A stretch of 64,000 bases of DNA from a virus. Within the stretch, counting starts at the first letter, position 1. Every line of letters starts with the position of its first letter. A program made the position numbers and the translations under genes. This document shows, piece by piece, positions 1,351 through 19,818 of this stretch. The DNA lies in the IMG/VR virus record IMGVR_UViG_3300046779_001123, positions 9,972 to 73,971 of that record; one strand, given 5' to 3'. Below the pieces are notes generated by a model. The model did not search any database. It had not been told where the DNA came from and was given only the letters and a program-made list of their open reading frames with translations.

Positions 1351-2018
1351 TCGAACAATTACAAAAACGTGGTTATGGGTATGGCACAGGATTTTTAAGT
1401 CCTGGCTGTGCTCAATTTGTTGTTAGCATACCTAAAAATGCCAGTAGCTACATTCTAGACTGGTGTGGACACCACGGATGGACCAACGCCATCGTAGGTG
1501 ATGCATGTGATTGGAATAGAGTAGAAGAAGTTATTGTAGTTCTCAGAGATCCGTTGCAACGATGGGTCTCTGGTATAGGACAATACATAACCAGTTATAT
1601 TCTCAATGTCACAGGAGTATATGATTGGTCTACTGGACCGGGGCCCAATGATCAATTTATAACCGGTGACGAGTTTATTGCCAACTACAATCCTGTAGTC
1701 GAGCGAATGTTGTTTGACAATTTAGATCGCCACGACGATCATGTTTGGCCTCAGATTGAATTTTTTGAAAATGTGTTGCCCAGTATTCCAAGAAAATACT
1801 TCTACATTGACCAGGACTTCAACACTAAATTTAGCAAATACTTAAATTTCAAACACATAGATGGACTAGACAGCAATCAAGGAGATTCTAATCCGCATAC
1901 TGAAAAAGTTCAACAGTTTATCAAGAGCCGTCTAAATATTCGTCCGGAACTAAAGCAACGAGTGATAGATGCTTATGCTCGTGATTACAAATTAATAAAA
2001 GAAATATTCAATGTCTGA
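1347..2018 (+). CDS. Hypothetical protein with sulfotransferase-like motifs
   Basis: SIPKNASSY (5'-PSB-like) and VVLRDPLQRWVSG (3'-PB-like RDPxxxxVS) motifs; weak. Confidence 0.3.
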   Translation: MIEQLQKRGYGYGTGFLSPGCAQFVVSIPKNASSYILDWCGHHGWTNAIVGDACDWNRVEEVIVVLRDPLQRWVSGIGQYITSYILNVTGVYDWSTGPGPNDQFITGDEFIANYNPVVERMLFDNLDRHDDHVWPQIEFFENVLPSIPRKYFYIDQDFNTKFSKYLNFKHIDGLDSNQGDSNPHTEKVQQFIKSRLNIRPELKQRVIDAYARDYKLIKEIFNV

Positions 2019-3567
2019 ACAAGATAATCTAACTGCCAAGCAAAAGGACTACGCTGTATTCCTTCCGGCTATCAGTGGCTTTTACGCTACATTTATAGGA
2101 AAGCAAAGAAATGAACACTATGTTGATCCGGCGAGATTTCCACAGGGTCTTACTGATATGGAACAGCTTAATTGGCTCAACTCAACTAAGTCCTTGTTTC
2201 CATACAAGTGGAGCCTTTATAGTGGGGGACACGCCAACTTGGATCTTGCTAGACAAGATTGGAGCGAAGACATGGTGCGAAACAGAGAGGCCGGGTCATT
2301 TATACTGGGAGACTCTGGAGGGTTCCAGATTGCCAAGGGTCTTTGGGAAGGTGATTGGAAAGCCAACTCTGGTTGTCCCAAGGCTCAAAAGAAGCGTGAG
2401 CTGATTCTAAACTGGCTGGACAATGTTGCTGATTATGGTATGATTCTTGATATCCCAACTTGGGTTATCCATGACAAGAAAGCATCGGCTGCTTGCCAAA
2501 TTACTACTCTACAAGAAGCTGTAGATGCAACCAAGTTCAACAATGAATACTTCATGAAGCATCGTCGAGGTGTTGCCAATGGTGGTGCTCGTTTCTTAAA
2601 CGTGTTGCAAGGCGACAATCACACTTCAGCAGAGCAATGGTATCAGACCATGAAGGAATACTGCGATCCAGCAAAGTATCCAGACACACATTTTGACGGC
2701 TGGTCCATGGGCGGCCAGAACATGTGTGACGTTCACTTGGTATTAAAACGTCTAGTAGCACTACGCTACGATAACTTGTTGCAACAGGGCAAACACGATT
2801 GGATGCACTTCTTGGGCACAAGTAAATTAGAGTGGGCAGTGTTGCTCACAGTTATTCAACGAGCTGTAAGAAAATATGTCAACCCTGCTTTTACTATTAG
2901 TTTTGATTGCGCTAGTCCATTCCTTGCAACGGCGAACGGGCAAGTCTATTTTGAAAACGTCTTTGAGCACGATTCTAAGTGGAGCTACCGAATGGCGCCA
3001 TCGGCAGACGACAAAAAATACGCCACAGACACCCGACCCTGGGGCCAAGGAGTAGTCCAAGACGGTATCTACGAACGTTGGCAAGATTCACCAATTAGTT
3101 CAATGCTGACAATGAAGGATATCTGCATTTACAAACCCGGAGACTTAAACAAGATCGGCAAAGAAGGCAAGACATCTTGGGATAGTTTCTCGTATGCCTT
3201 GCTTATGGGACACAATGTCTACATGCACTTGACTGCTGTTCAAGAAGCCAACCGACGTTTTGATGCCGGTGAGTATCCTGCTATGATGCGTCGTAGCACT
3301 GGCGATTATGCTAAATTCGAAGACATTGTTGAAGCAATCTTTGCAGCGCCGGATCGTCAGTCTGCTGAAGAAATCATCGAACTGTATAGTGGATATTGGA
3401 TGGAGATTGTGGGCACACGAGGATTCAAAGGCAAAAAGACCATGAATGCTCGAACACAATTCAACGCATTGTTTGATTTCGAAGAACCTGAGGTTGCAGA
3501 GGTGGCCGAAGATAGTGTAGAATTAGATACAACAGCATTAGATAAACTTGAAAATGAACAGACCTGA
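2011..3567 (+). CDS. dpdA: DpdA-like DNA-guanine transglycosylase (TGT superfamily) with acidic C-terminal tail
   Basis: LGDSGGFQ catalytic motif identical to TGT LTDSGGFQ; ISFDCASP ~ TGT MFDCV; no TGT zinc CxCxxC site. Confidence 0.75.
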   Translation: MSEQDNLTAKQKDYAVFLPAISGFYATFIGKQRNEHYVDPARFPQGLTDMEQLNWLNSTKSLFPYKWSLYSGGHANLDLARQDWSEDMVRNREAGSFILGDSGGFQIAKGLWEGDWKANSGCPKAQKKRELILNWLDNVADYGMILDIPTWVIHDKKASAACQITTLQEAVDATKFNNEYFMKHRRGVANGGARFLNVLQGDNHTSAEQWYQTMKEYCDPAKYPDTHFDGWSMGGQNMCDVHLVLKRLVALRYDNLLQQGKHDWMHFLGTSKLEWAVLLTVIQRAVRKYVNPAFTISFDCASPFLATANGQVYFENVFEHDSKWSYRMAPSADDKKYATDTRPWGQGVVQDGIYERWQDSPISSMLTMKDICIYKPGDLNKIGKEGKTSWDSFSYALLMGHNVYMHLTAVQEANRRFDAGEYPAMMRRSTGDYAKFEDIVEAIFAAPDRQSAEEIIELYSGYWMEIVGTRGFKGKKTMNARTQFNALFDFEEPEVAEVAEDSVELDTTALDKLENEQT

Positions 3568-4063
3568 ACACGATAACATAGACTTCTTTACAGGTATTGA
3601 AGTGGAACATACTCCTGCATACGGCATGGATACACTGTTTGTAATCGGTGTGCAACCGTTTAGCGAAATCACGCCTAGACTCAAAACCCCAGGGCAACAT
3701 ATCTATTTCGGTGCTAACCAAAGTTTTCCTAACCTAAAAGTCAATGACGGTGCAGAGTGGGCTAAGTGGGAACGTATGATTTATCACTATTTGGATATGG
3801 GCTATTGGTGCACCTTGGACATTGATATTTCGTGTGTGGAAGGTTTATTAGAATCTGGGCTGTGCGAGAACTCGCGCTTCATTCCAATGATTTCTGCCAA
3901 GCTGCCTTATATCGGTCAACTTGGCTACAATGCCACTCTCAAACTAGATGACAAAGACTTTAAAGCAACTAATCCAGGTGTATGGTGTCATAGTATACAT
4001 TCATTAATGGACCGTCACAACTTTACCGACTGGTCTAAATATACCAAAGATCAACCACTATGA
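3548..4063 (+). CDS. Hypothetical protein
   Basis: ORF overlapping the dpdA stop; no recognisable motif. Confidence 0.4.
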   Translation: MKMNRPEHDNIDFFTGIEVEHTPAYGMDTLFVIGVQPFSEITPRLKTPGQHIYFGANQSFPNLKVNDGAEWAKWERMIYHYLDMGYWCTLDIDISCVEGLLESGLCENSRFIPMISAKLPYIGQLGYNATLKLDDKDFKATNPGVWCHSIHSLMDRHNFTDWSKYTKDQPL

Positions 4064-4329
4064 TTAAATGGTTTAAAAGAAAAATTCTTCACTGGGCGTG
4101 GGATATAGACGAGGAGCCCATTGAAGTAGGTCGCAATGGTCGATGCCTTGAATCAGATTACATTCGTATCGACATCTATCGCGGCGAAGGCGGTCTTGCT
4201 GTAGAAACGCTGATCTACAACAAGAAAAAAGATATAAATCACATCGGCTTTCACATTGTCCACGACGACGAAGAACTCGGCAATAGACTTAGTAAAATTA
4301 TCACAGCAGAAAGTATCAAATCACTATGA
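4060..4329 (+). CDS. Hypothetical protein
   Basis: ATGA start/stop overlap with the upstream ORF. Confidence 0.35.
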   Translation: MIKWFKRKILHWAWDIDEEPIEVGRNGRCLESDYIRIDIYRGEGGLAVETLIYNKKKDINHIGFHIVHDDEELGNRLSKIITAESIKSL

Positions 4330-4769
4330 CACAATCAGAACGAGAACAAATTGAACGAATTAAAGAAAAAGCAGAACGCAAGATCTGGGTCACATTCCGC
4401 AAAGAAGGAATTCACAAATACCCTGCCGCAGCTACTGATCCGCTACTGGCGACCGGCGATGAATACGATGTTAGTTTTCTTGGTGTGCCTCACCGCCATA
4501 TATTCCATTTTCGAGTCTGGATCGATGTATTCCACAACGACCGAGATGTTGAGTTCATCCAATTTAAGCGATGGCTTGAAAATCTTTACAGAGACGGAAC
4601 TCTCCAACTCGACTTCAAGTCATGCGAAATGATGAGCGACGATTTGTATGTAAAGATTGCAGAACGCTATCCCAATCGCGCTGTATGGATCGAAGTGGCC
4701 GAAGACGGAGAAAACGGCGCACTGATCAAATACGAACTTTCTTATCCTGCACAATCAATTACAGTATAA
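4326..4769 (+). CDS. Hypothetical protein
   Basis: Tightly packed ORF; no assignable motif (contains His-rich VPHRHIFHF). Confidence 0.4.
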   Translation: MTQSEREQIERIKEKAERKIWVTFRKEGIHKYPAAATDPLLATGDEYDVSFLGVPHRHIFHFRVWIDVFHNDRDVEFIQFKRWLENLYRDGTLQLDFKSCEMMSDDLYVKIAERYPNRAVWIEVAEDGENGALIKYELSYPAQSITV

Positions 4770-5365: not shown

Positions 5366-5376
5366 AAGGAAATATC

Positions 5377-5598: not shown

Positions 5599-5600
5599 TC

Positions 5601-6056
5601 ATGGGTGCCGCAAGAGAACCCGACCAGGCGGACTTTGACTTAGACCGCTTTGTTGATATGTTTGACGAAGCGATGACAAGCCAGGATCCGCGTGTGGTTG
5701 AAACATTACGCAAGTTAATGATGATTGTGACATTGACACGACCAGAGACACACAACGAGCAAGGTCGTAGATCTGGACCGTTGAGAAGATTGTTCGAGGA
5801 CATGAACGATCTAAATAGAGCTATGAATCGCATGCAGGAGGAACTTCACATTATCTCTAACGAAGTTCGTCGTAGTTCACAACCATATCGCTGGGAAGCC
5901 GAAGACAAGTATACCTTGGCGGCGTCAGCAAAAATGGCCTCTCAGATCGATCATGATGTGTTGAATCAACTGAGACAACAACAAATTCAAGCCGCCAAAG
6001 TAATCAACGGTGGCTTGAACTTGGGTCCAGAGACTAAAGCAAAAGGACTTAAATGA
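5601..6056 (+). CDS. Hypothetical protein
   Basis: 151-aa ORF in the operon. Confidence 0.4.
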   Translation: MGAAREPDQADFDLDRFVDMFDEAMTSQDPRVVETLRKLMMIVTLTRPETHNEQGRRSGPLRRLFEDMNDLNRAMNRMQEELHIISNEVRRSSQPYRWEAEDKYTLAASAKMASQIDHDVLNQLRQQQIQAAKVINGGLNLGPETKAKGLK

Positions 6057-7243
6057 GAAAACTATACTACATGGGCTTGGAAAGCTATGAAGCCCGTTAC
6101 ACACTACAACTAACAGAATGGAACCGTCGTGTGTTTGAGCGCCGCGGTCTAGACGTTGTTTATGTTCCTGGCACTACAATTGACAACACACAAGCTATCT
6201 CCGTAGGGCAAGTGTTGGACGCACACGGTCGCAGTTATTTTGCCATGAGCCAAATGATGAACTTGGTTCAAATGATGAAGAACGGCGAAGTCACAGAGTC
6301 CGACGTTATTTACTTTGAAGACATGTTCCAGCCCGGCTTCGAAAGTCTTGGTTATATCATGAATCAAATTCCGCCAGGACATTGCCCACGTATCTATGTG
6401 CGTTGTTTGGCACAGGCCATTGACCCCGATGACTTTGTGCATGTGTGGGGCTTGCAGAAGTGGATGAATTTATATGAGCATATGGTCAATGAAATGGTGG
6501 CGTTCTCTGGTGGAGCCGTTCTGGCAACCAACGAGGAAATGGTGGCTCACATGCGGATTGCTGGCTGGACTGCTCCGATCTACAACATTTCCGGCCTGGC
6601 ATTTGGCAAATCAGAAGTTCTTGAGCGACTGGGCGGCAAAGAAAACATCCGTCCGTTTAATCAGCGTACCAGGAGGGTGGGTTTCGCAGCAAGATTCGAC
6701 CAAGAAAAGCAACCTGGCTTTTACATGGACCTTGCTGAAGAGTATCAAAAGAGATATCCTGGCACAGAGTTCGCTATATTTCAGGGTGGTCCGCTACGCT
6801 CCAACAATCAAGCGTATGTTGACAGAGCAAGAAATCTCGAGGCTAGCGGCAAGATTAAAATCTACGAGAATCTAAGCAAAAATGATTACTATAATCTACT
6901 CAATGATACTTGCGTTCTATTTAACTGTGCTTTACAAGACTGGGTTTCGAACACTGTGTCGGAAGCAGATAGTCTTGGTTGTAATGTGCTGTATCCTGCT
7001 TATCGGAGTTTCCCAGAAACTTTTGCCAATGATCCAGAACGCTTATACATCCCCTGGAGCCAGGATGATGCAATTCGTAAACTAGAAATGTTAATGACAG
7101 GACTGCACCCAAATGCTGGCAAGATTAGTGACTGGAACGATGGATGTGTTGACCGCATTGTTGATATTATTACTGGCATGGGCAGTCAATGGGATCGGTC
7201 GGGCAACCGTTATCGTGATCACGTTGCTGGGGCAAAATACTAA
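6053..7243 (+). CDS. Putative glycosyltransferase (GT-B-like)
   Basis: ~396 aa, N-terminus MRKLYYMGLE weakly resembles phage alpha-glucosyltransferase; C-terminal KIKIYENLS...CNVLYP resembles GT-B C-domain; weak. Confidence 0.35.
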   Translation: MRKLYYMGLESYEARYTLQLTEWNRRVFERRGLDVVYVPGTTIDNTQAISVGQVLDAHGRSYFAMSQMMNLVQMMKNGEVTESDVIYFEDMFQPGFESLGYIMNQIPPGHCPRIYVRCLAQAIDPDDFVHVWGLQKWMNLYEHMVNEMVAFSGGAVLATNEEMVAHMRIAGWTAPIYNISGLAFGKSEVLERLGGKENIRPFNQRTRRVGFAARFDQEKQPGFYMDLAEEYQKRYPGTEFAIFQGGPLRSNNQAYVDRARNLEASGKIKIYENLSKNDYYNLLNDTCVLFNCALQDWVSNTVSEADSLGCNVLYPAYRSFPETFANDPERLYIPWSQDDAIRKLEMLMTGLHPNAGKISDWNDGCVDRIVDIITGMGSQWDRSGNRYRDHVAGAKY

Positions 7244-8191
7244 ATGTCAACTGTAATTGTCACCGGCTCAGCTGGATACATTGGCGGACAAACTGCCCTG
7301 TTGTTAAAAGACGCAGGGCACGAAGTCTATGGCATTGACCGTAGAGAACCGCCACGGCATCTAGCAGGTGTTGTAGATGGGTTCTTGTATCAAGATTTTG
7401 CCAGTGATGTGGCATTAAGCTGGATTATACAAAAACAACCCACGGCTATCGTTCACTGTGCCGGCACCAGTCTCGTTGGCCCTAGTGTTGAGAACCCTGC
7501 AGAGTATTACAACAACAATGTAGTTAAGACACTGAAGTTGTTGGATATTGTTCGCAAGAGTTTGCCAAGAACAAGAATTATTTTTAGTTCTAGTGCTGCA
7601 ACTTACGGCGAGCCTGTAATGACTCCCATTGACGAATCATTCCCTGAATTGCCTGTAAGTCCTTACGGCGAAAGCAAGTATATAATTGACATGATGTTGC
7701 AATCGTACCATAAGGCCTATGGGTTGGACTATGTGTCATTCCGCTACTTCAATGCTTGTGGTGCCGATCCTAAAGGTAGGCATGGTCAAGAGCCTGGCGC
7801 CACACATTTAATTGCTCGCTTCTTAGAAGCAGCAAGAGATCAAGGAACGTTTAAAGTTTATGGAGTTGATTATCCTACTAGTGATGGTACTTGTGTTCGC
7901 GATTACGTGCATGTGGATGATATCGCCCGAGCCCACGCTTTGGCAATCTATCACAAAGTCCCTGCGGGCGTCTACAACCTTGGATCAAATCAAGGACACA
8001 CGGTCAAACAAGTAATAGAACGTGCAATGGCTATCACCGGCAAGCGGCCCGAGATTCAGTTTGGTGCTGCACGACCCGGCGATCCTGCTAAGTTAACAGC
8101 CACCGCAGCTAAGTTTGATTTGTTAGCAGGCGCTTGGAGACATTATACATTGGATGACATGATCCAACATGCATGGAACTGGTATGTTTGA
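7244..8191 (+). CDS. galE: UDP-glucose 4-epimerase / NAD-dependent epimerase-dehydratase
   Basis: VTGSAGYIGG Rossmann motif, YGESK catalytic YxxxK, RYFN. Confidence 0.85.
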   Translation: MSTVIVTGSAGYIGGQTALLLKDAGHEVYGIDRREPPRHLAGVVDGFLYQDFASDVALSWIIQKQPTAIVHCAGTSLVGPSVENPAEYYNNNVVKTLKLLDIVRKSLPRTRIIFSSSAATYGEPVMTPIDESFPELPVSPYGESKYIIDMMLQSYHKAYGLDYVSFRYFNACGADPKGRHGQEPGATHLIARFLEAARDQGTFKVYGVDYPTSDGTCVRDYVHVDDIARAHALAIYHKVPAGVYNLGSNQGHTVKQVIERAMAITGKRPEIQFGAARPGDPAKLTATAAKFDLLAGAWRHYTLDDMIQHAWNWYV

Positions 8192-8789
8192 AAAAATTAA
8201 AGAATTTGAAACAAAGCTCGCAGAGTTTACTGGATCTCCGTATGCAATTATGACTGATTGTTGCACACACGCTATTGAAATGTGTTTGCGATATGACCAA
8301 ATTACAGATTGCTCTTTTACACCTTACACCTATTTGAGCATTCCTATGACTATGCACAAGTTAGGAATTGAGTATAGCTATTTTCCAGATCATTTGCCGC
8401 ACAGGCAACAATGGACAGGTGAATACAAATTTGAAGGTACACGTATTTGGGACTCTGCTCGTAGATTAGAACGCAACATGTATCGCCCTGGTCAGATGCA
8501 ATGTTTGAGTTTTGGACATACTAAGCCTTTACATATCGGCCATGGTGGTGCTATACTGTTGGATGACAAGCGGGCGTATGATGACATAATTCGTATGCGA
8601 TACGACGGTCGCGATCTAAATATATCGCCCTGGGCAGAACAAAAGGTATTTTATGTTGGATACCATTACAAACCAAGCATTGAAGATGCTATTCAAGGCA
8701 TAGCATTGTTGGTCGGGCTTGAGGAGTATTGCCCTGAACCTAAATTTGTTCAATATCCAGATCTAAGACAAATCATTATTAAGGACTAA
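8184..8789 (+). CDS. Shortened DegT/DnrJ/EryC1-family PLP-dependent sugar aminotransferase-like protein
   Basis: FETKLAEFTGSPYAIMT and SFGHTKPLHIGHGGAIL match DegT blocks including the PLP lysine; only ~200 aa against ~370 expected. Confidence 0.45.
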   Translation: MFEKIKEFETKLAEFTGSPYAIMTDCCTHAIEMCLRYDQITDCSFTPYTYLSIPMTMHKLGIEYSYFPDHLPHRQQWTGEYKFEGTRIWDSARRLERNMYRPGQMQCLSFGHTKPLHIGHGGAILLDDKRAYDDIIRMRYDGRDLNISPWAEQKVFYVGYHYKPSIEDAIQGIALLVGLEEYCPEPKFVQYPDLRQIIIKD

Positions 8790-8790
8790 A

Positions 8791-9492
8791 ATGACAGACA
8801 ACAGTTTGAATCTATCACAAGCAATTCGCAATCAAATGAAATCACAAGGCAAGCGTTTCTGGGCCGGCGACAACATCAGCGACTATGTTGATGAAGAACA
8901 AAAACAAGTTCTAATCAACGAAGCAACCGTGGCGTTTGAGCAGGTTTTAGATGCACTATTAATCGACAGAGAAAATGATCCAAACTCTAAAGGCACAGCA
9001 AGACGACTTGCAAAAATGTATTTCAATGAAATCATGGCTGGCAGGTATGAGGAGAGCCCTTCAGCAACGGCGTTTCCTAATGACACAGAAGGAGCATATG
9101 AAGGTATGCTGGTGGTGCGTTCGGAGCTTAAAAGCATGTGTAGCCACCATCACCAACCTGTTACGGGTGTGGCTTATATTGGAATCATTGCTGGTCCCAA
9201 ACTCATTGGCCTATCAAAATACACTCGCATTGCGCAATGGTGTGCCCGTCGAGGAACGTTACAGGAAGAGCTGTGTATGGATATCGCTAGAGAAATTGAA
9301 ACAGCAACTGGATCCAAAGACGTTGCAGTTTATATCCAAGCTACCCACGGATGCTGTGAGAATCGTGGTATTATGGCACACTCTAGTCTTACACAAACCA
9401 CAGTTCTACACGGTGCATTTAAAACAGATGCAGGCGTGAAAAAAGAGTTTTTTGACAACATCAAACTGCAACAGGACTTTGCGCCGCGCTAA
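8791..9492 (+). CDS. folE: GTP cyclohydrolase I
   Basis: SMCSHHH, GLSKYTRIAQWCARR, QEELCMDIA, ATHGCCENRG match FolE blocks. Confidence 0.8.
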   Translation: MTDNSLNLSQAIRNQMKSQGKRFWAGDNISDYVDEEQKQVLINEATVAFEQVLDALLIDRENDPNSKGTARRLAKMYFNEIMAGRYEESPSATAFPNDTEGAYEGMLVVRSELKSMCSHHHQPVTGVAYIGIIAGPKLIGLSKYTRIAQWCARRGTLQEELCMDIAREIETATGSKDVAVYIQATHGCCENRGIMAHSSLTQTTVLHGAFKTDAGVKKEFFDNIKLQQDFAPR

Positions 9493-9521: not shown

Positions 9522-9527
9522 AGGTGC

Positions 9528-11745: not shown

Positions 11746-11766
11746 AAAATAAGCACTTCAAAATAT

Positions 11767-11792: not shown

Positions 11793-11811
11793 TTTATAGA
11801 TACATAACGAT

Positions 11812-12642
11812 ATGAAATATAGCATTGCAGTTTTACTACCAACAAGAGGACGCACTGGCGCACTGAGCCGTAGCGTGATGAGCTTGATCAACCGAGCTGT
11901 TAAATTAGAGCGAGTCCAGCTACTGCTTGGGTTCGACGATGATGACACAGAAGGAATTGAGCACTTTCAAAATGAGTTAGAGCCTTGGCTTATTGAGAAA
12001 AAAGTCAATTATGACGCCCAAGTGTTTCCTCGCATGGGCTATGCTCGTTTAAATGAATATGTTAATGCTCTTGCTCAAGCCAGCGATGCAGATTGGTTAA
12101 TGTTCTGGAACGATGACGCCATGATGGACACTGCTGGATGGGACAAGCAAATTGCTGATCACACCGGCGAATTCAAATGCTTGGCAGTGCATACACATCG
12201 AGATCATCCATATAGTATTTTTCCCATTGTTCCTAGAGAATGGCTAGATGCACTAGGATATCTCAGCCCACATCAAATTTCAGATGCATGGCTAAGCCAA
12301 CAAGCATATCTACTAGATATATTTGAAAGAATTCCTGTATGGGTTACACATGATCGTCACGATCTTACTGGCAATAACAATGACGACACTTACAAAAATC
12401 GTGTGATGTATGAAGGCAATCCCAACAGCCCCAAAGACTTCCATCACATCAGTTGGCATCTCCGTAGAATGGAAGATGTTGAAAAACTTGCCAGCTATAT
12501 GCAATCACAGAATCTCAGCACCGAATGGTGGGAAAATGTTAAATTAAAAAAACAAGATCCATGGGCAAAATTACAAGAAAATGATGTCAATGGTCAATGT
12601 AAACAATTTCAACTTCCAGTAAATCAAATGGGTGGAGTATGA
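11812..12642 (+). CDS. GT-A fold (GT2-like) glycosyltransferase
   Basis: SIAVLLPTRGR N-terminus and DDDD (DxD) motif. Confidence 0.5.
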   Translation: MKYSIAVLLPTRGRTGALSRSVMSLINRAVKLERVQLLLGFDDDDTEGIEHFQNELEPWLIEKKVNYDAQVFPRMGYARLNEYVNALAQASDADWLMFWNDDAMMDTAGWDKQIADHTGEFKCLAVHTHRDHPYSIFPIVPREWLDALGYLSPHQISDAWLSQQAYLLDIFERIPVWVTHDRHDLTGNNNDDTYKNRVMYEGNPNSPKDFHHISWHLRRMEDVEKLASYMQSQNLSTEWWENVKLKKQDPWAKLQENDVNGQCKQFQLPVNQMGGV

Positions 12643-13418
12643 GCGAGACCTTAGAAGAGCGTATCAAAAGATATTGGAATGCACAGCCATGCAACATCAA
12701 GCATGGCACTGCTGATTTTGGCACACCTGAATTCTTTCAACAAATTAGCGAGCGTCGATATAAAGTAGAACCTCATATTGCGGAGTTTGCTGGATTCCAT
12801 TTATGGCAAGGCAAACGTGTGTTAGAAGTAGGTTGCGGAATTGCCAGTGATGGCGAAGAGTTTGCCAAACATGGTGCCGAATATGTGGGTATTGACTATA
12901 GTGACCAAAGCGTGGAAATTGCCCGCAAGCGTTTTGAAGTGCATGGTCTCGAGGGCGAGTTCCATAACATTGATGCCAGTGACAGTAACGCAACCGCTAA
13001 TTTGGGCAAGTTTGATCTTGTTTACAGCTACGGTGTTATTCATCACTTTCCTGCAATTGATACTATTATCAATAACATTCATTCCTTGCTCAAACCCGGT
13101 GGTGAATTCCGCTTCATGGTATATGCCAAAAACTCTTGGAAACAGGCAATGATCTACAAAGGGCTGGATCAATACGAGGCACAAGCAGGGTGTCCGTATG
13201 CCAAGAGTTTCTCCAAAGAAGAAATCCCCGAATTACTGGGGCCTGGCTGGCATGTGGAACGAGTGAGACAAGATCATTGTTTTATGTATAACGTAGAAGC
13301 CTATAAACAAGGGCAATATGAGTTAGAACCTTGGTTTGCTGCTATGCCGGACGCAATGCGCGAAGCTGTGCGTGAATATCTAGGCTGGCATTTACTAGTT
13401 AAGGCGAAGAAGGTTTGA
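12639..13418 (+). CDS. Class I SAM-dependent methyltransferase
   Basis: VLEVGCGIASDG motif I, LKPGG post-motif. Confidence 0.75.
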   Translation: MSETLEERIKRYWNAQPCNIKHGTADFGTPEFFQQISERRYKVEPHIAEFAGFHLWQGKRVLEVGCGIASDGEEFAKHGAEYVGIDYSDQSVEIARKRFEVHGLEGEFHNIDASDSNATANLGKFDLVYSYGVIHHFPAIDTIINNIHSLLKPGGEFRFMVYAKNSWKQAMIYKGLDQYEAQAGCPYAKSFSKEEIPELLGPGWHVERVRQDHCFMYNVEAYKQGQYELEPWFAAMPDAMREAVREYLGWHLLVKAKKV

Positions 13419-14365
13419 AAAAAATAGTTTATATCACAGGGTGTCTTGGGTTCATGGGTGTTCATGTAACACGTGAGCTACTTGCCCGAGGCTGGTATGT
13501 CATAGGTGTGGACAAATGCACTTATGCCAGCAATGAAAACTTCTTAAATGAATTTAACAAGTATAAAACTTTTAAGTTCATTAAGTCCGACATCAATGAT
13601 TTAGATCGTTTACATGATTGTGATTATGTTATCAACATGGCAGCAGAAACACATGTTGATAATTCTATCATGAGCAGTGGTGTATTTTTACACAGTAATG
13701 TCAACGGGGTGCATCACCTGCTGGAATTGATCAAACAGCAACCCCGACACAAACAACCTGTGCTGTTGCATTTTAGCACAGACGAAGTCTATGGCGACAT
13801 CAACTCGGGTGCTCACACAGAAACTGATTTGCTAAAGCCCAGCAATCCGTATTCAGCCAGCAAGGCTGCTGCTGATATGTTAATCACTGCTTGGGCAAGA
13901 ACATATGGTATGAAGTATATCATTGTGCGTCCTACTAACAACTACGGCACAGGGCAGTATGTTGAAAAACTCATACCCAAGTCTATAAAGTATCTCACAC
14001 TAGGCAAAAAGATCGATTTGCATGATCGCGGCGAACCTGTGCGAACTTGGCTTCATGCCACTGATACTGCTGTTGCTGTTGCAACAATTATCAATTCGGG
14101 CGTGACCAACGAAATATACAACATTTCGGGCAATGCAGAAATGCCTAACCGAGAAGTTATCAAGAAGATACTGACTCTTTATCAAGGTTCCGATGCCGCG
14201 GCGAATTGGGAAGATTATATCTTTGATAGCAATCGAGTCGGGCAAGATGTTCGCTATGCAATTGATGACTCAAAACTCAAGGCTTTGGGATGGTATCCGC
14301 TTGCAGACTTTGACACGGCACTGGCAGATATAGTAAAATATTACATTGAAAATTTTGTATGGTAA
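13415..14365 (+). CDS. NDP-glucose 4,6-dehydratase (RfbB-like, extended SDR)
   Basis: ITGCLGFMG, STDEVYG, YSASKAAAD (YxxxK). Confidence 0.8.
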   Translation: MKKIVYITGCLGFMGVHVTRELLARGWYVIGVDKCTYASNENFLNEFNKYKTFKFIKSDINDLDRLHDCDYVINMAAETHVDNSIMSSGVFLHSNVNGVHHLLELIKQQPRHKQPVLLHFSTDEVYGDINSGAHTETDLLKPSNPYSASKAAADMLITAWARTYGMKYIIVRPTNNYGTGQYVEKLIPKSIKYLTLGKKIDLHDRGEPVRTWLHATDTAVAVATIINSGVTNEIYNISGNAEMPNREVIKKILTLYQGSDAAANWEDYIFDSNRVGQDVRYAIDDSKLKALGWYPLADFDTALADIVKYYIENFVW

Positions 14366-15081
14366 AAAACTATCTAGTGTGTGCTGTTCGTCCTATTGAG
14401 GATGGCTGGCACCTTGAAAAAAATCACGATCTGTATGCACAATACAGACAAATGTATGACCTGCGATTAGCAAGTTTCCGCAAGTTTGTTGAGGAACCAT
14501 TTGAAGCCGTTCTGTGGACTGATCCGGTTAAAAACAATGATGAGTATACCATTGCAAACTGGAACGCGATCAAGGAATTATGGCATAGCGAGCCGTGCAA
14601 TATCTTCTGGGCCGGGGCTGACACAATCATGACACAGCCTACAAGTTTGTTCAGCGATAGATTCAAAGAATATCGCATGTTCAACTACACTGACCCAAGG
14701 TCACACAGAGAATTTGCGCATTACTTCAACGACGATATTCAATACTATCCTCATACTATGAGCAAGGAGACGTGGGACTTAGGCGAGGAATTGTGGTCTC
14801 AACGCGAAGGTCATCCAGATCAGTTTTGGGGATTTGATCAGAATAGACACAACACAATGTTTTGGAGTCAAGACATCCCAGACAACGATCGATTCCATCC
14901 CCATCTAGCATACCAGGCAATGCAACTTAGAGAGCTAACACAACAAGTAATAGATAAGCATAATGCGTGGAATGGCTTGGACATACGTCAAGCACACATT
15001 ATACATTTTCATGCCAGTCGTGGCAGTCAACAGGTCATTGATCTCATGCGTTTTATTTCTCAACAACTAGGTATCATTTAA
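14359..15081 (+). CDS. Hypothetical protein in the sugar cluster
   Basis: 240-aa ORF, W/H-rich, no clear motif. Confidence 0.4.
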   Translation: MVKNYLVCAVRPIEDGWHLEKNHDLYAQYRQMYDLRLASFRKFVEEPFEAVLWTDPVKNNDEYTIANWNAIKELWHSEPCNIFWAGADTIMTQPTSLFSDRFKEYRMFNYTDPRSHREFAHYFNDDIQYYPHTMSKETWDLGEELWSQREGHPDQFWGFDQNRHNTMFWSQDIPDNDRFHPHLAYQAMQLRELTQQVIDKHNAWNGLDIRQAHIIHFHASRGSQQVIDLMRFISQQLGII

Positions 15082-16400
15082 TGGAAGAAATTCTCAAATT
15101 AGTGCGAGAGCACATCGAACAAAAACAAGCTAACAAAACTTGGACAGCTGGCGAGGACTTTGTAAACTATGCCGGATCTTATTTTGATGAAAAAGAATTT
15201 GTTGCTGCGGTGGAAAGTTTGCTCAAAGGTTGGCTTGTCATGGGCGACGCTGGCTTGAAGTTTGAGCGTGAGTTTCCGCAATATTTTGGCAAAAGCAAAG
15301 GCATTCTGACAAACTCCGGGTCATCTAGCAACTTGCTGATGATGTCAGCGTTAACATCCAAGCGTGGTTACAACTTGCCTAAAGGCACAAAAGTGTTAAT
15401 GCCTATTGCAGGTTTTCCTACCACACTAAACCCAACATTACAAGTGGGGTTTGAACCTGTGTTTGTGGACATTGAACTAGATACTCTTAATTTAGACTTG
15501 GATCAAGTTGAAATGAGATTGATATCTGATCCTTCTATTCGTGTAATTACATTTGCTCATGTGCTAGGTAATCCCCCAGCAATGGATCGATTGATGGAAT
15601 TAGTCGAGCGGCATGATCTTATTTTGTTAGAAGATTGTTGCGATGCATTGGGCAGCACATATGACGGCAAACCCTTGGGCAGTTATGGCTTGATGGCATC
15701 GTGCAGTTTCTATCCAGCACACCACATGACCATGGGCGAAGGCGGCTATGTTGCCACCAATGACGCAAACACAGATGTTATCTTACGTTCATTCCGTGAA
15801 TGGGGCCGTGGTTGCTATTGCGTAGGCCCAGAGGCCAATAAGTTGAAATGCGGCACTTGTGGCAATAGATTCAACAACTGGATTCCAACCTTGCCCAATG
15901 AAATATTTGATCACAAATACGTCTATGACGAAATTGGCTACAACATGAAGCCCATTGAAGTTCAATGTGCCATGGGCTTGGAGCAGTTGAAAAAGTTGCC
16001 TGAAATTCATGCCTTGCGTCGACGCAACTATCAATTACTATTTGACATTTACAAAGACTATGAAGAATTCTTCTACTTACCAAGAGCGACTGCAAAGTCT
16101 GACCCTAGTTGGTTTGCTTTCCCACTCACCATACGCCCGGGTGCTCCCTTTACTAGGAATGACATTGTGGATTACCTCGAAGAAAATCTCATTCAAACTC
16201 GTCCTTATTTTGCTGGCAATATTATGTTGCAGCCTGCTTATAGCCATTTGATGGATCCGCAGAAAGCCAAGGACAATTTCCCCAACGCAACACACGCAAT
16301 GACACACACTTACTTCCATGGAACAAGTCCAGTCATTACACCCGAACAAATTGAATATATTGGTTCAGTGGTTCGCGGTTTCTTAAGTTTATATCGATAA
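15081..16400 (+). CDS. DegT-family PMP-dependent NDP-4-keto-6-deoxyhexose 3-dehydrase (E1/RfbH/ColD-like)
   Basis: SFYPAHHMTMGEGG with His replacing the PLP Lys, as in E1/ColD; 439 aa. Confidence 0.7.
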   Translation: MEEILKLVREHIEQKQANKTWTAGEDFVNYAGSYFDEKEFVAAVESLLKGWLVMGDAGLKFEREFPQYFGKSKGILTNSGSSSNLLMMSALTSKRGYNLPKGTKVLMPIAGFPTTLNPTLQVGFEPVFVDIELDTLNLDLDQVEMRLISDPSIRVITFAHVLGNPPAMDRLMELVERHDLILLEDCCDALGSTYDGKPLGSYGLMASCSFYPAHHMTMGEGGYVATNDANTDVILRSFREWGRGCYCVGPEANKLKCGTCGNRFNNWIPTLPNEIFDHKYVYDEIGYNMKPIEVQCAMGLEQLKKLPEIHALRRRNYQLLFDIYKDYEEFFYLPRATAKSDPSWFAFPLTIRPGAPFTRNDIVDYLEENLIQTRPYFAGNIMLQPAYSHLMDPQKAKDNFPNATHAMTHTYFHGTSPVITPEQIEYIGSVVRGFLSLYR

Positions 16401-16410
16401 GGAGACAGCC

Positions 16411-18171
16411 ATGAAGGGTAGTCAATACGTAGCAAAGTTTTTAAAGGCCGTTGGTGCCAACAAAGTTTTCCAAGTGCAAGGTGGTGCAATCACATTTATG
16501 GTTGATCAAATTGCCCTAGAAGAAGGCATGGAAGTCGTTTGCTTCCAGCACGAGCAAGCCGCTGCAATGGCAGCAGATGCACTGTGGCGCACAAATGGAC
16601 AACTAGGTGTGTCAATGGCAACGTCTGGTCCTGGTGCATCAAACTTGATCACCGGTATTGCTTGTGGCTATTACGATAGTATTCCTAGCTTGCACATCAC
16701 AGGGCAAGTAAACTATGAAGAACAAAAACTCTATCGTGGTGCTGCTGTTCGCCAAGCTGGTTTTCAACAAATGGACATTGTCTCTATGGTCAAGCCTGTT
16801 TGCAAATATGCTGTGAACGTCACAACACACGATGACATGCGCCAAGAACTTAAACGTTGTGTGGAAGAAGCATACTCGGGCCGCATGGGTCCTGTGCTGA
16901 TTGACATTCCCATGAACTTGCAAAACGCCGAAATGGAAGATAGCACAATGTTGTTGCCTGATTCTTCAAAATGGAGTGCCGTTGACACTGGTATTCTTCC
17001 CGAGGGAGTTGGCAGCGCAATTCAACACTTCTTAGGCAGTGCCAAGCGACCACTTATTATATTCGGCGCAGGTGTTGGCCTTGCAGGTAAGCAAGCAGAA
17101 CTTGAGCGTTGGTTAGGCTCTAATAAGATTCCGTTTGTTGCTACTTGGGCTGCATTAAATTACTTTAGTCACGAAGCACCTACCTACATCGGACACTTTG
17201 GTGTGTATGGCAATCGCGGCGGTAACAATGCTATTCAAAACGCAGACCGCATTCTTGTGCTAGGTTCTCGCTTAGACAACCGCCAGCGGTCAGGAAACCC
17301 TGCTAACTTTGCACCTAATGCTAAAATCTTGTGTATTGATATTGACCCAGCTGAGTTAGAAAAACTAGATCCAGCGAACTATCGCGGCATCGAATTCGAC
17401 TTGCGTAATCTTGACAAAGCATTGCGTGGTGTAGAGAAGCCCAAGTTTGATCCAGAATGGGGTAAGTATTGCCAAAGTCTCAAGGCAAAGTATTTTAACA
17501 AAGATACTAGTTCATACAGCCAACAACACGATGTTATGAGTCCGTATGCAGTGGTAGAAAAGCTACAGCAAGTAGCTGAGTCTGATGCTGTTATCACAAC
17601 AGATGCAGGTGCTAACCACTGCTGGGTTTACCAGTCATTCTATCGCAATCAAGATCAACTGTTAATGACCAGCTCGGGTCACTATGCCATGGGTTATGCA
17701 TTGCCTGCATCAATTGGTGCTGCATTGGTTGCACCTACTCGTCAGCACATTTGCTCCAATGGCGATGGTGGCATTCAAATGAACTTGCAAGAGCTGCAAA
17801 CTGTCAAAGAGTATGATTTGGATATCAAAGTTGTTGTGTTCAACAATCGTCGATTGGGAATGATTTGTCAGTTCCAAGACACTTATATGGATGGCCGTCA
17901 TGCTGCTACAGAGAATGGCCCCGGTCGTCCCGACTTTAGAAAGATTGCTGAAGCATTTGATTTTGATTATGTGTTGATTACTTCGTTAGATCAAATCAGT
18001 GCCGAGACACTAAAGCCCGGTCGTAGAATTATCGAAATCAAGATCCATCCTGGCGTGCAAATTGAACCTAAACTAGAAAAAGGTCGTCCTATTAATGATC
18101 AATCACCGTTGGTCAGCGACGAAGAGTTTGCTACTGGTAATCCATATTATACCTACGAGAGAATTCGTTGA
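16411..18171 (+). CDS. ThDP-dependent acetolactate-synthase-like enzyme (YerE-like branched-sugar synthase candidate)
   Basis: 586 aa; GDGGIQMNLQELQT ThDP-binding GDG-x24-N motif; AGGAGA RBS. Confidence 0.75.
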   Translation: MKGSQYVAKFLKAVGANKVFQVQGGAITFMVDQIALEEGMEVVCFQHEQAAAMAADALWRTNGQLGVSMATSGPGASNLITGIACGYYDSIPSLHITGQVNYEEQKLYRGAAVRQAGFQQMDIVSMVKPVCKYAVNVTTHDDMRQELKRCVEEAYSGRMGPVLIDIPMNLQNAEMEDSTMLLPDSSKWSAVDTGILPEGVGSAIQHFLGSAKRPLIIFGAGVGLAGKQAELERWLGSNKIPFVATWAALNYFSHEAPTYIGHFGVYGNRGGNNAIQNADRILVLGSRLDNRQRSGNPANFAPNAKILCIDIDPAELEKLDPANYRGIEFDLRNLDKALRGVEKPKFDPEWGKYCQSLKAKYFNKDTSSYSQQHDVMSPYAVVEKLQQVAESDAVITTDAGANHCWVYQSFYRNQDQLLMTSSGHYAMGYALPASIGAALVAPTRQHICSNGDGGIQMNLQELQTVKEYDLDIKVVVFNNRRLGMICQFQDTYMDGRHAATENGPGRPDFRKIAEAFDFDYVLITSLDQISAETLKPGRRIIEIKIHPGVQIEPKLEKGRPINDQSPLVSDEEFATGNPYYTYERIR

Positions 18172-18980
18172 AAGTATTGATCACAGGAGCCGGGGGATTC
18201 CTTGGCTCGTATCTTAGTAAACATCTTCCACATGAAGTTGTTGCGCTGACCCGACAACAACTGGACTTGTCGGATACACTGGCAACATACAATCATTTTC
18301 AAAACAACAGATACGACGCAGTAATTCATTGCGGTGCTGCCGGGCGCAACACTCCATTGGCCGAAGATTGGAACATAGTTAACAATAATTTACAGTCGGT
18401 TATGAATCTCATGATCAACAATCGTGAATTTGACAAACTGATCAATATTGGCACCGGTGCCGAATTTGATGTTGGCCGCGATATCGACTGTGTTAGCGAA
18501 AATGAAATATTCAATCGTATGCCGCCACAAAGTTATGGAATGAGTAAAAATCTCATAGCCAGATATTTGCGTGGCCACCCCATGTGCTACAATCTGCGAC
18601 TGTTTGGTTGTTTTGATTCGTCAGAAGATCCGGCTAGACTTCTCAAAAAATTTCATTCAACTGTGTCCCAGGGCAAGAAGTTCAGCATTACGGACAGGGA
18701 ATTTGACATGATCAGTGCCACGGATTTTGCCGTTGTTGTCAATGCTGTGCTCAATGGAGCCATAAATTATCGCGATATCAACTGCGTTTATGCCAAAAAG
18801 TATAGACTAAGCGAAATATTGAGTGTATACTGTGACAAACATGGACTAGATAAATCCTTGATTGAAATCAACGGGCAAGGATTGAATTATACCGGCAATG
18901 GTGATACGCTGTCTAAATACAACCTCAATCTACTTGGATTGGAACAATCATTAGCAAACTATGAAATTAAAAATCAGTGA
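18168..18980 (+). CDS. NAD(P)-dependent epimerase/reductase (short SDR)
   Basis: MKVLITGAGGFLGSYL Rossmann motif. Confidence 0.6.
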   Translation: MKVLITGAGGFLGSYLSKHLPHEVVALTRQQLDLSDTLATYNHFQNNRYDAVIHCGAAGRNTPLAEDWNIVNNNLQSVMNLMINNREFDKLINIGTGAEFDVGRDIDCVSENEIFNRMPPQSYGMSKNLIARYLRGHPMCYNLRLFGCFDSSEDPARLLKKFHSTVSQGKKFSITDREFDMISATDFAVVVNAVLNGAINYRDINCVYAKKYRLSEILSVYCDKHGLDKSLIEINGQGLNYTGNGDTLSKYNLNLLGLEQSLANYEIKNQ

Positions 18981-19818
18981 ACTCTTTTACTCTGCTCAAG
19001 GTGAAGGCCGTTTTGTTGGCGTTCCTTCAGTGTTCTTACGCACATTCGGATGCAATTTCACATGTTCTGGATTTGGCTGCAAGCCAGGCGAGAAGAGCAC
19101 AGAGGCGGACGAAGTTGCGAAGAATATCCATCTCTATAAGGATTTTACTAGCCTCCCGCTGGTTAATACTGGATGTGATTCCTACGCATCATGGCACCCT
19201 GCATTTAAGGATCTTAGCCCGACTATCGAAACCGCAGAGTTAGTCGATCAAATGCTAGCACTAACACCCAATCATCGTTGGGTGCAGGACAATGGCAACG
19301 ACGTGCATTTGGTGATCACCGGAGGCGAACCATTGCTGGGTTGGCAACGTGCATACACAGAACTCTTAAGTCACGAACGCATGGCAGACCTGCGTAATAT
19401 TACATTTGAAACAAATGGCACTCAAACGCTACAAGGAAAGTTCATCGACTACTTGCTGGATTGGAGTGAAATTGCTGGAAATGAAATTACATTCTCAGTA
19501 AGTCCTAAACTAAGTGCATCAGGCGAGAAGTGGGAAGAAGCAATTCGTCCTGAGATTGTTCGCATGTATCAAGACTATGGCTTTACATATTTGAAGTTTG
19601 TTGTAGAAACAGAACAACACTTTGAAGAAGTAGACAAGGCTGTTGGTCAATATCGTGCTGTTGGATTTAATGGTCCAGTATTTGTAATGCCACAAGGTGG
19701 TGTTGTCACTCCTTATGCACAGAATCGTGTTCGAGTAGCAGACTGGGCACTAAGCAAAGGATACAATTACAGTCCACGTTTACACGTTGACCTGTGGGGC
19801 AATGGTTGGGGAAAATAA
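18961..19818 (+). CDS. queE: 7-carboxy-7-deazaguanine synthase-like radical SAM enzyme
   Basis: SAQGEGRFVGVPSVFLRTFGCNFTCSGFGC resembles the QueE N-terminal Cys cluster. Confidence 0.6.
   Translation: MKLKISELFYSAQGEGRFVGVPSVFLRTFGCNFTCSGFGCKPGEKSTEADEVAKNIHLYKDFTSLPLVNTGCDSYASWHPAFKDLSPTIETAELVDQMLALTPNHRWVQDNGNDVHLVITGGEPLLGWQRAYTELLSHERMADLRNITFETNGTQTLQGKFIDYLLDWSEIAGNEITFSVSPKLSASGEKWEEAIRPEIVRMYQDYGFTYLKFVVETEQHFEEVDKAVGQYRAVGFNGPVFVMPQGGVVTPYAQNRVRVADWALSKGYNYSPRLHVDLWGNGWGK

Follow-up and report, generated by a model that had tools for sequence, protein, structure and literature searches.

The DNA of the Cellulophaga phage phiST carries dDG in place of G. Cui et al. (2023, PMC10516641) relate the modified base to a gene set comprising DpdA3, FolE, QueD, QueE and DpdL, the last being a QueD paralog proposed as the 7-carboxy-7-deazaguanine (CDG) decarboxylase giving dDG. 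According to that study, DpdL is found exactly in phages that have DpdA, FolE, QueD and QueE and lack QueC. Its decarboxylase activity is a proposal, and dDG could not be reconstituted in E. coli from DpdL and DpdA of phiST or of the Acidovorax phage ACP17, whose DpdA and DpdL were those used. In the Pseudomonas jumbo phage PA5oct (Wroclawvirus) the DNA has been reported to contain modified G and to show G-dependent restriction resistance, and nucleases that sense modified G restrict this phage (PMC12191111). The published analysis of PA5oct named QueE and PTPS only.

Here, we describe a related locus in a window of 64 kb, the whole stretch of DNA analyzed, from an uncultured freshwater jumbo phage of the PA5oct-like type; the window is probably part of a genome of about 350 kb. 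Positions refer to the window, and the genes discussed between 2011 and 20615 are all on the plus strand. The locus was compared with 80 related loci, whose flanks total 1.19 Mb.

The transglycosylase and its conserved neighbours

The sequence-only reading had assigned ORF 2011..3567 (518 aa) to the TGT superfamily from its DSGGFQ motif; the six-frame translation has a single copy of it, at nt 2311. The ORF has no match in Pfam, the TGT model included, or in PHROGs. Its AlphaFold2 model, built from 58 diverse homologs (mean pLDDT 90.1, pTM 0.90), is predicted to adopt the TGT fold: the 13 best Foldseek matches in the PDB are all TGTs (bacterial TGT, QTRT1, archaeosine TGT), headed by 6yry (E 9e-8), and the BFVD matches include phage tRNA-guanine transglycosylase and DpdA-like proteins. 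D101, S102, G104, H266 and D299 are invariant in the family alignment, so that motif, fold and conserved residues uphold the assignment. The protein shares with bacterial and eukaryotic TGT/QTRT1 the (beta/alpha)8 fold, the DSGGFQ-type motif and the second conserved Asp. It differs from them in its low identity (about 12–16%), an additional helical C-terminal region, a DNA replication context and the lack of the zinc-binding Cys/His cluster. The option of a true tRNA TGT with a zinc site, raised in the earlier reading, was checked across the whole DpdA-like family alignment, in which no Cys cluster or TGT zinc site is conserved. Together, the model and the alignment support a member of the TGT superfamily that resembles phage DpdA and lacks the zinc site. 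PA5oct gp168 is its closest cultured relative (35% identity), and ACP17 gp123 (424 aa) aligns with it at hhalign 96%. The named DpdA subfamilies resemble it poorly, DpdA3 matching at 72% over a partial region and DpdA1 of phage 9g giving no match; the phiST transglycosylase has 259 aa.

The genes for DNA polymerase B and a 5′-3′ exonuclease adjoin the module, whose order (DpdA-like, p171, DpdL, GT4-like glycosyltransferase, GalE, shortened DegT and FolE) is almost unchanged among the relatives. The 171-aa accessory protein p171 (3548..4063), with no assigned fold, comes right after the DpdA-like gene in 69 of the 70 relatives whose sequence extends far enough. It matched nothing in Pfam, PHROG or PDB and is homologous to ACP17 gp122 (E 4.5e-13). 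DpdL is conserved in 61/62 relatives, the glycosyltransferase in 41/41, GalE in 34/36, the DegT-like gene in 31/34 and FolE in 23/25.

The DpdA-like, glycosyltransferase and DpdL trio occurs with QueE also in ACP17, PA5oct, Phosso and two metagenomic loci (L009 and L010). ACP17, a 156-kb myovirus, has orthologs in gp122 (p171), gp123 (DpdA-like), gp124 (GT4-like), gp125 (DpdL) and gp126 (QueE), with FolE and QueD as well and the whole set beside the DNA polymerase, but it lacks GalE, DegT and the deoxysugar cassette described below. PA5oct keeps the order gp168 (DpdA-like), gp167 (glycosyltransferase), gp166 (DpdL) and, later, gp162 (QueE), as well as the synteny of flanking structural, exonuclease and ATPase genes; it differs in having no extended sugar cassette, and its annotation lists gp168, gp167 and gp166 as hypothetical proteins.

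CDG pathway genes, DpdL and the expected base

FolE (GTP cyclohydrolase I, 8791..9492) is identified by Pfam GTP_cyclohydroI (1.4e-39) and NCBIfam FolE models. QueD (CPH4 synthase, 11242..11745; Pfam PTPS 4e-16, phrog_2389 QueD-like 6e-37) is of the phage type, with the CxxxHGY motif of the annotated QueD in ACP17 and phiST. The radical SAM enzyme QueE (CDG synthase, 18961..19818; phrog_2076 4.7e-53) matches solely QueE models in NCBIfam, carries an N-terminal ELFYSAQGEG and is 32% identical to PA5oct gp162. Thus, the three genes that had been read from the sequence beside the transglycosylase are borne out by profile matches. The accompanying claim that QueC and QueF are missing stands within the sequence searched: no Pfam match to either among window ORFs of at least 150 aa and some shorter ones, no window match at a cutoff as loose as E ≤ 10 to a QueC HMM based on the E. 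coli protein and the Gat-QueC of phage 9g, and neither gene in the 1.19 Mb around the 80 relatives. QueC may lie outside the 64 kb, in the remainder of the approximately 350-kb genome.

The prediction of dCDG, drawn from FolE, QueD and QueE alone, is not supported, since it overlooked a DpdL homolog of 147 aa (4326..4769) two genes downstream of the transglycosylase, and the phiST precedent is dDG. The homolog carries LGVPHRHIF, conforming to LxxxHRHxF, and matches phrog_17812 (1.4e-35). By tblastn it is 69% identical to its counterpart in Phosso, 57% to PA5oct gp166 and 34% to phiST CGPG_00067 (E 2e-9), and it is 56–59% identical to ACP17 gp125; its profile comparison with QueD is weak (44%). 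In addition to DpdL and the QueD motif, phiST shares the genes leading to CDG, with neither QueC nor QueF, and a TGT-like transglycosylase beside the polymerase. It differs in lacking the GT4-like glycosyltransferase, p171, GalE and the other sugar genes, having a MazG-like gene instead. Because the gene set, with DpdL and without QueC, matches the published precedent, the expected base is probably dDG or a derivative of it rather than dCDG, dPreQ0 or dG+.

The glycosyltransferase and the sugar genes

The GT4-like (GT-B) glycosyltransferase (6053..7243) has a weak Pfam Glycos_transf_1 match; many of its homologs, which include PA5oct gp167 (E 4e-12), ACP17 gp124 and a Phosso protein annotated as glycosyltransferase, carry PF00534, and the family profile matches WlaC (E 0.006). 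It is followed by GalE (UDP-glucose 4-epimerase, 7244..8191; NCBIfam TIGR01179, 289.7 bits, cutoff 262.3) and by a shortened DegT/PLP-enzyme-like protein of 206 aa (8169..8789; partial Pfam DegT_DnrJ_EryC1 match, 1.6e-13). The alpha- and beta-glucosyltransferases of T4 act in DNA hypermodification of 5hmC, the acceptor being a hydroxymethyl pyrimidine. The likeness with T4 is a general one, a GT-B enzyme encoded inside a DNA base-modification module, and a hydroxymethyl-pyrimidine pathway was not seen in this window. To our knowledge, plain 7-deazaguanine offers no obvious acceptor for a sugar. The glycosyltransferase, p171, GalE and the DegT-like protein probably belong to the same pathway as the transglycosylase, either as required partners or for sugar addition. 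The conservation of the glycosyltransferase and sugar-nucleotide genes in the module keeps alive the option of an undescribed derivative, which the sequence-only reading had mentioned without this reason.

Downstream of FolE the content is more variable. An FG-GAP repeat protein (9528..10763; Pfam FG-GAP_3 1.4e-18) is an insert present in 3/80 relatives. A HIT-family gene beside FolE and QueD (10760..11161; Pfam HIT 3.6e-8; 13/24 relatives) occupies the same place in the loci L003, L004 and the marine L009. They are followed, after QueD, by a second glycosyltransferase (11812..12642; phrog_14945 1.2e-11; 11/24 relatives) and a SAM-dependent methyltransferase (12639..13418; Pfam Methyltransf_12/23/25, about 1e-20) with counterparts in 3 relatives; in the locus L085, QueE lies directly 3′ of the methyltransferase gene. 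In the present phage a variable cassette (13415..18980), predicted from NCBIfam and Pfam matches to serve a branched, yersiniose-like 3,6-dideoxyhexose, comes next. It comprises an NDP-glucose 4,6-dehydratase (13415–14365; NCBIfam, 307 bits), a 240-aa ORF with no assigned function (14359–15081), an RfbH 3-dehydrase (15081–16400; NCBIfam RfbH equivalog, 450.7 bits against a cutoff of 423), an acetolactate-synthase-like TPP enzyme (16411–18171; best NCBIfam models ALS, all under their cutoffs) and an RmlD-like reductase (18168–18980). The cassette was not found in the 80 sampled relatives.

Alternative readings and proposed pathway

Were the pathway to end at CDG and the transglycosylase to insert it, as first predicted, the DNA would contain dCDG. 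FolE, QueD and QueE without a detected QueC fit this outcome, and dCDG, like dDG, is a base already described: PMC10516641 gives dCDG in STSV-2 and low-efficiency CDG insertion by VH7D DpdA2 in a queC mutant. The reading is nevertheless unlikely given the conserved DpdL, two genes from the transglycosylase, and given phiST, the sole analyzed precedent with this gene set, in which the base is dDG. Equally improbable is amidation or further conversion of the carboxyl to dADG or dPreQ0 by host QueC, by NadE or by a PP-loop paralog serving as QueC surrogate. NH3-dependent NAD synthetase (NadE, 19794..20615; Pfam NAD_synthase 7.8e-52, phrog_11189 2.7e-83), a carboxylate-amidating PP-loop enzyme, comes straight after QueE; two paralogous PP-loop ORFs with no assigned family (26803–27975 and 50243–51457) have an AsnB/LarE/beta-lactam-synthetase-like fold, a type that implies carboxylate-adenylating chemistry, and the best PDB sequence match of their family profile is the QueC PP-loop 3bl5, at a non-significant E of 0.21; a class I GATase is encoded at 44849–45505. 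However, NadE is 45–53% identical to the NadE of pelagiphages and cyanophages and, despite its adjacency, probably lies outside the module. None of the 80 relatives has NadE or the paralogs in its flanks; the paralogs are 7 and 30 kb from the module, with no QueC within their best 50 fold matches, and DpdL itself speaks for removal of the carboxyl.

That the TGT-like protein acts on tRNA would agree with the nearest solved structures, which are tRNA enzymes, and with the approximately 33 tRNAs of the phage, including, 10–16 kb downstream, genes for all four of the Q34 type, tRNA-Tyr(GTA), Asp(GTC), His(GTG) and Asn(GTT). Yet the zinc site is lacking throughout the family, the gene adjoins PolB in a replication module, the PA5oct ortholog belongs to a phage whose DNA resists restriction in a G-dependent way, and dDG is in the DNA of DpdL phages; a tRNA target is therefore highly improbable. 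A more serious, though still less likely, possibility is that the base is plain dDG and that the glycosyltransferases and sugar-nucleotide genes are passengers, with the virion or host glycans as their targets. Such genes are common in jumbo phages, the yersiniose-like cassette is variable, and phiST produces dDG without a GT4-like enzyme. Against it, the GT4-like family is present in just 23 of 50,697 phage records, PA5oct among them, with DpdL at most 3 kb away in 18, and these DpdL-linked records span seven unrelated host groups. Moreover, the gene is kept in every relative examined for it, and ACP17 carries it, as the only sugar gene in the vicinity, with the DpdA-like gene on one side and DpdL on the other.

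We consider a DNA guanine-modification module, with dDG or a base built on dDG, the most probable explanation. In the pathway proposed, FolE, QueD and QueE, by homology, convert GTP to CDG, and the DpdL homolog, by the phiST precedent, may decarboxylate CDG to 7-deazaguanine (DG). The TGT-fold protein, as its fold, conserved catalytic residues and gene context suggest, would then exchange guanine in replicated phage DNA for DG (or CDG). In this phage, the yersiniose-like cassette is inserted into the module. The gene context is the new part of the result: the module would probably be a kit for swapping guanine in phage DNA for a 7-deazaguanine base, and a putative glycosylated deazaguanine, a modification not yet described, is a plausible product.

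The DpdA-like transglycosylase and its phage

The DSGGFQ motif occurs once in the six-frame translation of the window, within a plus-strand ORF of 518 amino acids (2011-3567). The sequence-only reading had taken this ORF for a member of the TGT superfamily placed alongside FolE, QueD and QueE, and the motif, the fold and the Pfam, PHROG and NCBIfam evidence show that reading to be correct. Among 1.84 billion cluster representatives, 974 homologs of the ORF were identified. In an alignment of 58 diverse homologs D101, S102, G104, H266 and D299 are invariant, and the motifs GDSGGFQ, LDxP, NVLQG, GW..G, HFLG and SxDxxSP parallel those of TGTs; the two residues required in the TGT superfamily, the catalytic Asp of a DSGGFQ-type motif and a second conserved Asp acting as nucleophile, are both present. 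At the sequence level, residues 98-221 of the family profile align weakly to residues 101-235 of the Z. mobilis TGT (E = 1.7, search of PDB sequences). The AlphaFold2 model of the protein (pLDDT 90.1, pTM 0.90) is that of a (β/α)8 TGT fold, its best 13 PDB matches being all TGT, QTRT1 or ArcTGT (E from 9e-8 to 6e-4). In BFVD the model matched uncharacterised jumbo-phage proteins (1e-27), a 'tRNA guanine transglycosylase' of Achromobacter phage Motura (1e-12), a protein of Vibrio phage nt-1 (7e-9) and actinophage queuine tRNA-ribosyltransferases.

The ORF has no match in Pfam at E 0.01, TGT PF01702 included, and none in PHROGs. This does not set it apart from known DpdAs, since DpdA1 of phage 9g, DpdA3 of phiST and gp123 of ACP17 likewise gave no Pfam TGT match at E ≤ 1. 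Comparison of the family by hhalign gave 96% with ACP17 gp123 and 72%, over part of the length, with phiST DpdA3; 9g DpdA1 was not matched, nor was the Pfam family of DpdA4 (DUF6610) in ORF 2011-3567. The alternative raised from the sequence, a true tRNA-guanine transglycosylase with a zinc site, shares the fold and the catalytic residues. Its CxCxxC...H zinc site was not found in the family alignment, in which no Cys cluster is conserved and only C372 (64%) and H401 (88%) are partly so; the TGT zinc site is therefore absent. As expected of a phage DpdA, the 7-deazaguanine synthesis genes FolE, QueD and QueE lie in the same gene string as the transglycosylase, both here and in the relatives. 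The family brought to view goes unseen by Pfam and PHROGs. It is large: clustering at 50% identity yields about 970 groups and at 90% more than 7,600, and the contigs that carry it reach about 350 kb.

Long ORFs of the window are close-packed and nearly all on the plus strand. Searched with megablast, the 50,697 phage records gave no nucleotide-level match to the region. At the protein level there is synteny with Pseudomonas jumbo phage PA5oct, involving structural gp170, gp168, gp166, QueE gp162, exonuclease gp159 and ATPase gp149. Metagenomic relatives, many from JGI environmental metagenomes, carry a DpdA-like ORF 65-94% identical to the one described here; their contigs are as long as about 350 kb. 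Synteny and contig size together indicate that the window is a piece of an uncultured jumbo phage. A plus-strand array of about 33-35 tRNA genes (25425-42054), in which all four Q34-type tRNAs (Tyr, Asp, His and Asn) are represented, explains why there are no long ORFs at 28.6-40 kb. Within the array lies a full-length GOLLD RNA (38278-38739, plus strand; Rfam RF02032, 210.6 bits, E = 4e-58) in which a tRNA-Lys (38340-38411) is embedded. The start of the tRNA region matches the permuted tmRNA (28705-29113, plus strand; Rfam RF04321, 66.6 bits where the gathering score is 47), a feature absent from the ARAGORN output. An odd tRNA at 34730-34820 was called with an 'anticodon' of two bases. Further along the plus strand are a metabolic gene run (42332-45505) encoding a malonyl-CoA-decarboxylase-like fragment, an AhpC/peroxiredoxin, a class II aldolase, a carboxymuconolactone-decarboxylase-family protein and a class I glutamine amidotransferase; a TctC-like periplasmic binding protein (49316-50233); a MoxR-type AAA ATPase orthologous to PA5oct gp149 (53412-54494); a DUF2201 metallopeptidase/VWA protein (59131-60453); and an SPFH/Band 7 protein (61174-62022).

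Precursor synthesis and the predicted base

The identities assigned to FolE, QueD and QueE were confirmed with Pfam, PHROGs and NCBIfam. FolE (8791-9492) has a GTP cyclohydrolase I domain (Pfam, 1.4e-39) and scores 137.6 bits with the NCBIfam FolE model, under its cutoff of 202. QueD (11242-11745) matches Pfam PTPS (4e-16) and the QueD PHROG (6e-37); its motif CNLIHGY has the form CxxxHGY instead of the expected CxxxHGH, a form also seen in the annotated QueD of ACP17 and phiST. QueE (18961-19818) matches phrog_2076 (4.7e-53), contains the N-terminal xFxSxQGEG motif and is hit by five NCBIfam QueE models, all under their curated cutoffs, and by no other family.

QueC, QueF and a Gat-QueC fusion had been reported missing, and this was borne out for the window: no scanned ORF matched QueC (PF06508) or QueF in Pfam, and a QueC HMM that detected its two controls, from E. 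coli and phage 9g, found nothing in the window at E ≤ 10. Three ORFs carry an SGGxDS motif, namely NadE and two AsnB/LarE-like paralogs, and each could be weighed as a substitute. NadE, the NH3-dependent NAD synthetase (19794-20615, plus strand; Pfam NAD_synthase, 7.8e-52), was considered as a QueC surrogate because it directly follows QueE; NadE is a carboxylate-amidating enzyme. It is nonetheless a typical aquatic-phage NadE, sharing 45-53% identity with the enzymes of Pelagibacter phage HTVC008M and marine cyanomyophages, and is absent from the flanks of 80/80 relatives, so this was rejected as the main reading. The paralogs (26803-27975 and 50243-51457, plus strand), of about 400 amino acids and 26% identical to each other, match nothing in Pfam, PHROGs or the phage records and belong to a family that lacks annotation and counts 409 homologs in metagenomes and none in sequenced phages. 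The best PDB sequence match of their profile is the PP-loop of QueC, at a non-significant E of 0.21. The AlphaFold2 model of the first paralog (pLDDT 88) resembles AsnB, LarE and β-lactam synthetase weakly, and no QueC appears among its top 50 fold matches, for which reason divergent QueC was rejected; as modelled, the paralogs are not canonical QueC, and a deazaguanine role for them, which nothing supports, is conceivable. Neither QueC nor NadE nor the paralogs were found in the 1.19 Mb of the 80 relatives' loci.

FolE, QueD and QueE without QueC had led the sequence-only reading to predict dCDG, the nucleoside of 7-carboxy-7-deazaguanine (CDG), or an undescribed derivative. That prediction missed a DpdL homolog of 147 amino acids (4326-4769), which was found with a regular expression for the published DpdL signature. 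Its motif LGVPHRHIF shows the pattern LxxxHRHxF in place of the CxxxHGH of QueD, and H56 and H58 are invariant across the family. It is 69% identical to a protein of Phosso, 57% to PA5oct gp166, 56-59% to ACP17 gp125 (tblastn 56%, E = 4e-42) and 34% to phiST CGPG_00067 (tblastn, E = 2e-9). No match to it was found in Pfam or the PDB, profile search of PDB sequences included. The hhalign comparison with QueD profiles was weak (44%, E = 2e-4, across only 40 residues), and the case for DpdL and QueD being paralogs comes from the HHpred analysis by Cui et al. (PMC10516641). In 2023 Cui et al. gave CGPG_00067 the name DpdL and proposed that it decarboxylates CDG, which would account for phiST having all its G replaced by dDG; DpdL occurs in phages that have DpdA, FolE, QueD and QueE and lack QueC (PMC10516641). 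The same paper gives 267.109 as the [M+H]+ of dDG. Vibrio phage VP1 has since been reported as a second phage with full dDG substitution (bioRxiv 10.1101/2025.10.29.685425), and viral DNA has already yielded dCDG, dDG and dADG (PMC10516641). By the phiST precedent the gene set predicts dDG, and in place of dCDG a DpdL-type product, dDG or a derivative, should be expected.

Glycosyltransferase, sugar genes and their linkage to DpdL

Local HMMs were run on 80 IMG/VR loci with a transglycosylase 64-90% identical to that of the window, the loci having been located with a 10-sequence alignment, and presence was counted among the loci reaching far enough. The gene order after the DpdA-like gene is then nearly invariant: a 171-aa protein, p171 (3548-4063), in 69/70 loci, DpdL in 61/62, a GT4-like glycosyltransferase (6053-7243) in 41/41, GalE (7244-8191) in 34/36, a short DegT-like protein (8169-8789) in 31/34 and FolE in 23/25, followed by a HIT protein (10760-11161; 13/24), QueD (17/24) and a second glycosyltransferase (11812-12642; 11/24). 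Profile search of PDB sequences with p171 returned nothing. The short DegT-like protein (plus strand, 206 amino acids) keeps the SFxxTK lysine region and is missing roughly half of the usual aminotransferase; its conservation in the relatives argues against a pseudogene fragment. GalE is above the curated NCBIfam cutoff.

The first glycosyltransferase matches PF00534 (Glycos_transf_1) at E = 0.0024, under the cutoff of a Pfam family that many of its homologs carry, and the family profile matches WlaC (E = 0.006). Its E/D-x7-E motif reads QETLGIxxxE in relatives and QDWVSNTVSE here. By sequence, the DpdL-linked protein is a GT-B/GT4-like glycosyltransferase. A tblastn search with ACP17 gp124 found the family in 23 of the 50,697 phage records, and comparison of coordinates with the DpdL matches placed DpdL at 3 kb or less in 18 of these: ACP17 (two records), Phosso, 11 PA5oct-like phages, Xanthomonas BUDD and X1, Burkholderia BCSR5 and Synechococcus BUCT-ZZ01. 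Linkage in 18/23 records across seven host groups indicates a specific association with DpdL and not a generic jumbo-phage sugar gene.

Between a methyltransferase (12639-13418) and QueE lies a plus-strand cassette (13415-18980) with NCBIfam matches to a dTDP-glucose 4,6-dehydratase-like enzyme (13415-14365), RfbH, the 3-dehydrase of 3,6-dideoxyhexose pathways (15081-16400, above the curated cutoff), an acetolactate-synthase-like TPP enzyme (16411-18171) and an RmlD-like reductase (18168-18980). Dehydratase, RfbH, TPP enzyme and reductase follow the logic of yersiniose-type branched dideoxyhexose synthesis, and we infer a branched 3,6-dideoxyhexose (yersiniose-like) pathway. None of the 80 relatives sampled has the cassette, and in one related locus (L085) QueE directly follows the methyltransferase, which points to a lineage-specific insertion into the module. 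In other relatives the same position is filled by a B12-radical-SAM gene. The B12-binding radical SAM protein of the window (40088-41986, plus strand, 632 amino acids) has a 49%-identical homolog inside the deazaguanine module of another related locus (L003), and in L003 and several IMG/VR loci such a homolog directly follows the second glycosyltransferase.

The trio of DpdA-like protein, glycosyltransferase and DpdL, with QueE, is also found in distant phages. In ACP17 (gp122-126), gp122 is a p171 homolog, gp123 the DpdA-like protein (hhalign 96%) and gp124 the glycosyltransferase. In PA5oct, gp168, gp167 and gp166 (L001, NC_071039, 222985-226130) correspond to the DpdA-like protein, the GT4-like enzyme and DpdL and are annotated as hypothetical; the 2025 END-nuclease preprint lists only QueE (gp162) and PTPS (gp230) as deazaguanine genes of this phage, whose DNA shows G-dependent resistance to restriction (PMC12191111). 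For the modification in PA5oct, GA or GG is the suggested motif. In Phosso, DpdL, the glycosyltransferase, FolE and QueE are clustered, with the DpdA-like gene elsewhere in the genome. The trio with QueE is also present in a marine locus and an ACP17-like 184-kb contig.

A proposed pathway and its implications

Taken together, the evidence gives good support for a genuine 7-deazaguanine DNA-modification module at this locus. Homology shows the route from GTP to H2NTP (FolE), on to CPH4 (QueD) and then to CDG (QueE). DpdL would then turn CDG into 7-deazaguanine (DG), following phiST, where this activity has been proposed in the literature. The DpdA-like protein would exchange G for the deazapurine after replication, as suggested by its fold, its catalytic residues, the replication-module context and the restriction resistance of PA5oct. 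Gene linkage suggests that p171 and the GT4-like enzyme may take part, possibly in base glycosylation.

Attempts to reconstitute dDG in E. coli from DpdA and DpdL of phiST or ACP17 failed, and further enzymes are perhaps needed (PMC10516641). The near-exclusive occurrence of the glycosyltransferase in the DpdL neighbourhood may explain this failure, and the linked glycosyltransferase and p171 are obvious candidates for the missing ACP17 enzymes. Rather speculatively, the glycosyltransferase might attach a sugar to 7-deazaguanine, as free base or in DNA, aided by GalE, the short DegT-like protein, the second glycosyltransferase and the dideoxyhexose cassette; in that case the DNA of PA5oct-like and ACP17-like phages and of these freshwater jumbo phages would contain a glycosylated deazapurine, and exchangeable cassettes would provide each lineage with its own sugar. 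To our knowledge no sugar-bearing purine hypermodification has been described, and this would be the first.

Systems of this kind are already known; new here are the unannotated DpdA family, the fixed linkage with glycosyltransferase and sugar-nucleotide genes, and the swappable sugar cassettes. For the modified G of the therapeutic jumbo phage PA5oct, a candidate DpdA (gp168), DpdL (gp166) and glycosyltransferase (gp167) are now at hand, and the existence of glycosylated deazapurines in DNA is directly testable in cultured PA5oct, ACP17 and Phosso. The relatives of this phage are abundant freshwater jumbo phages, and 7-deazaguanine DNA modifications influence which restriction, CRISPR and glycosylase defences act on a phage.
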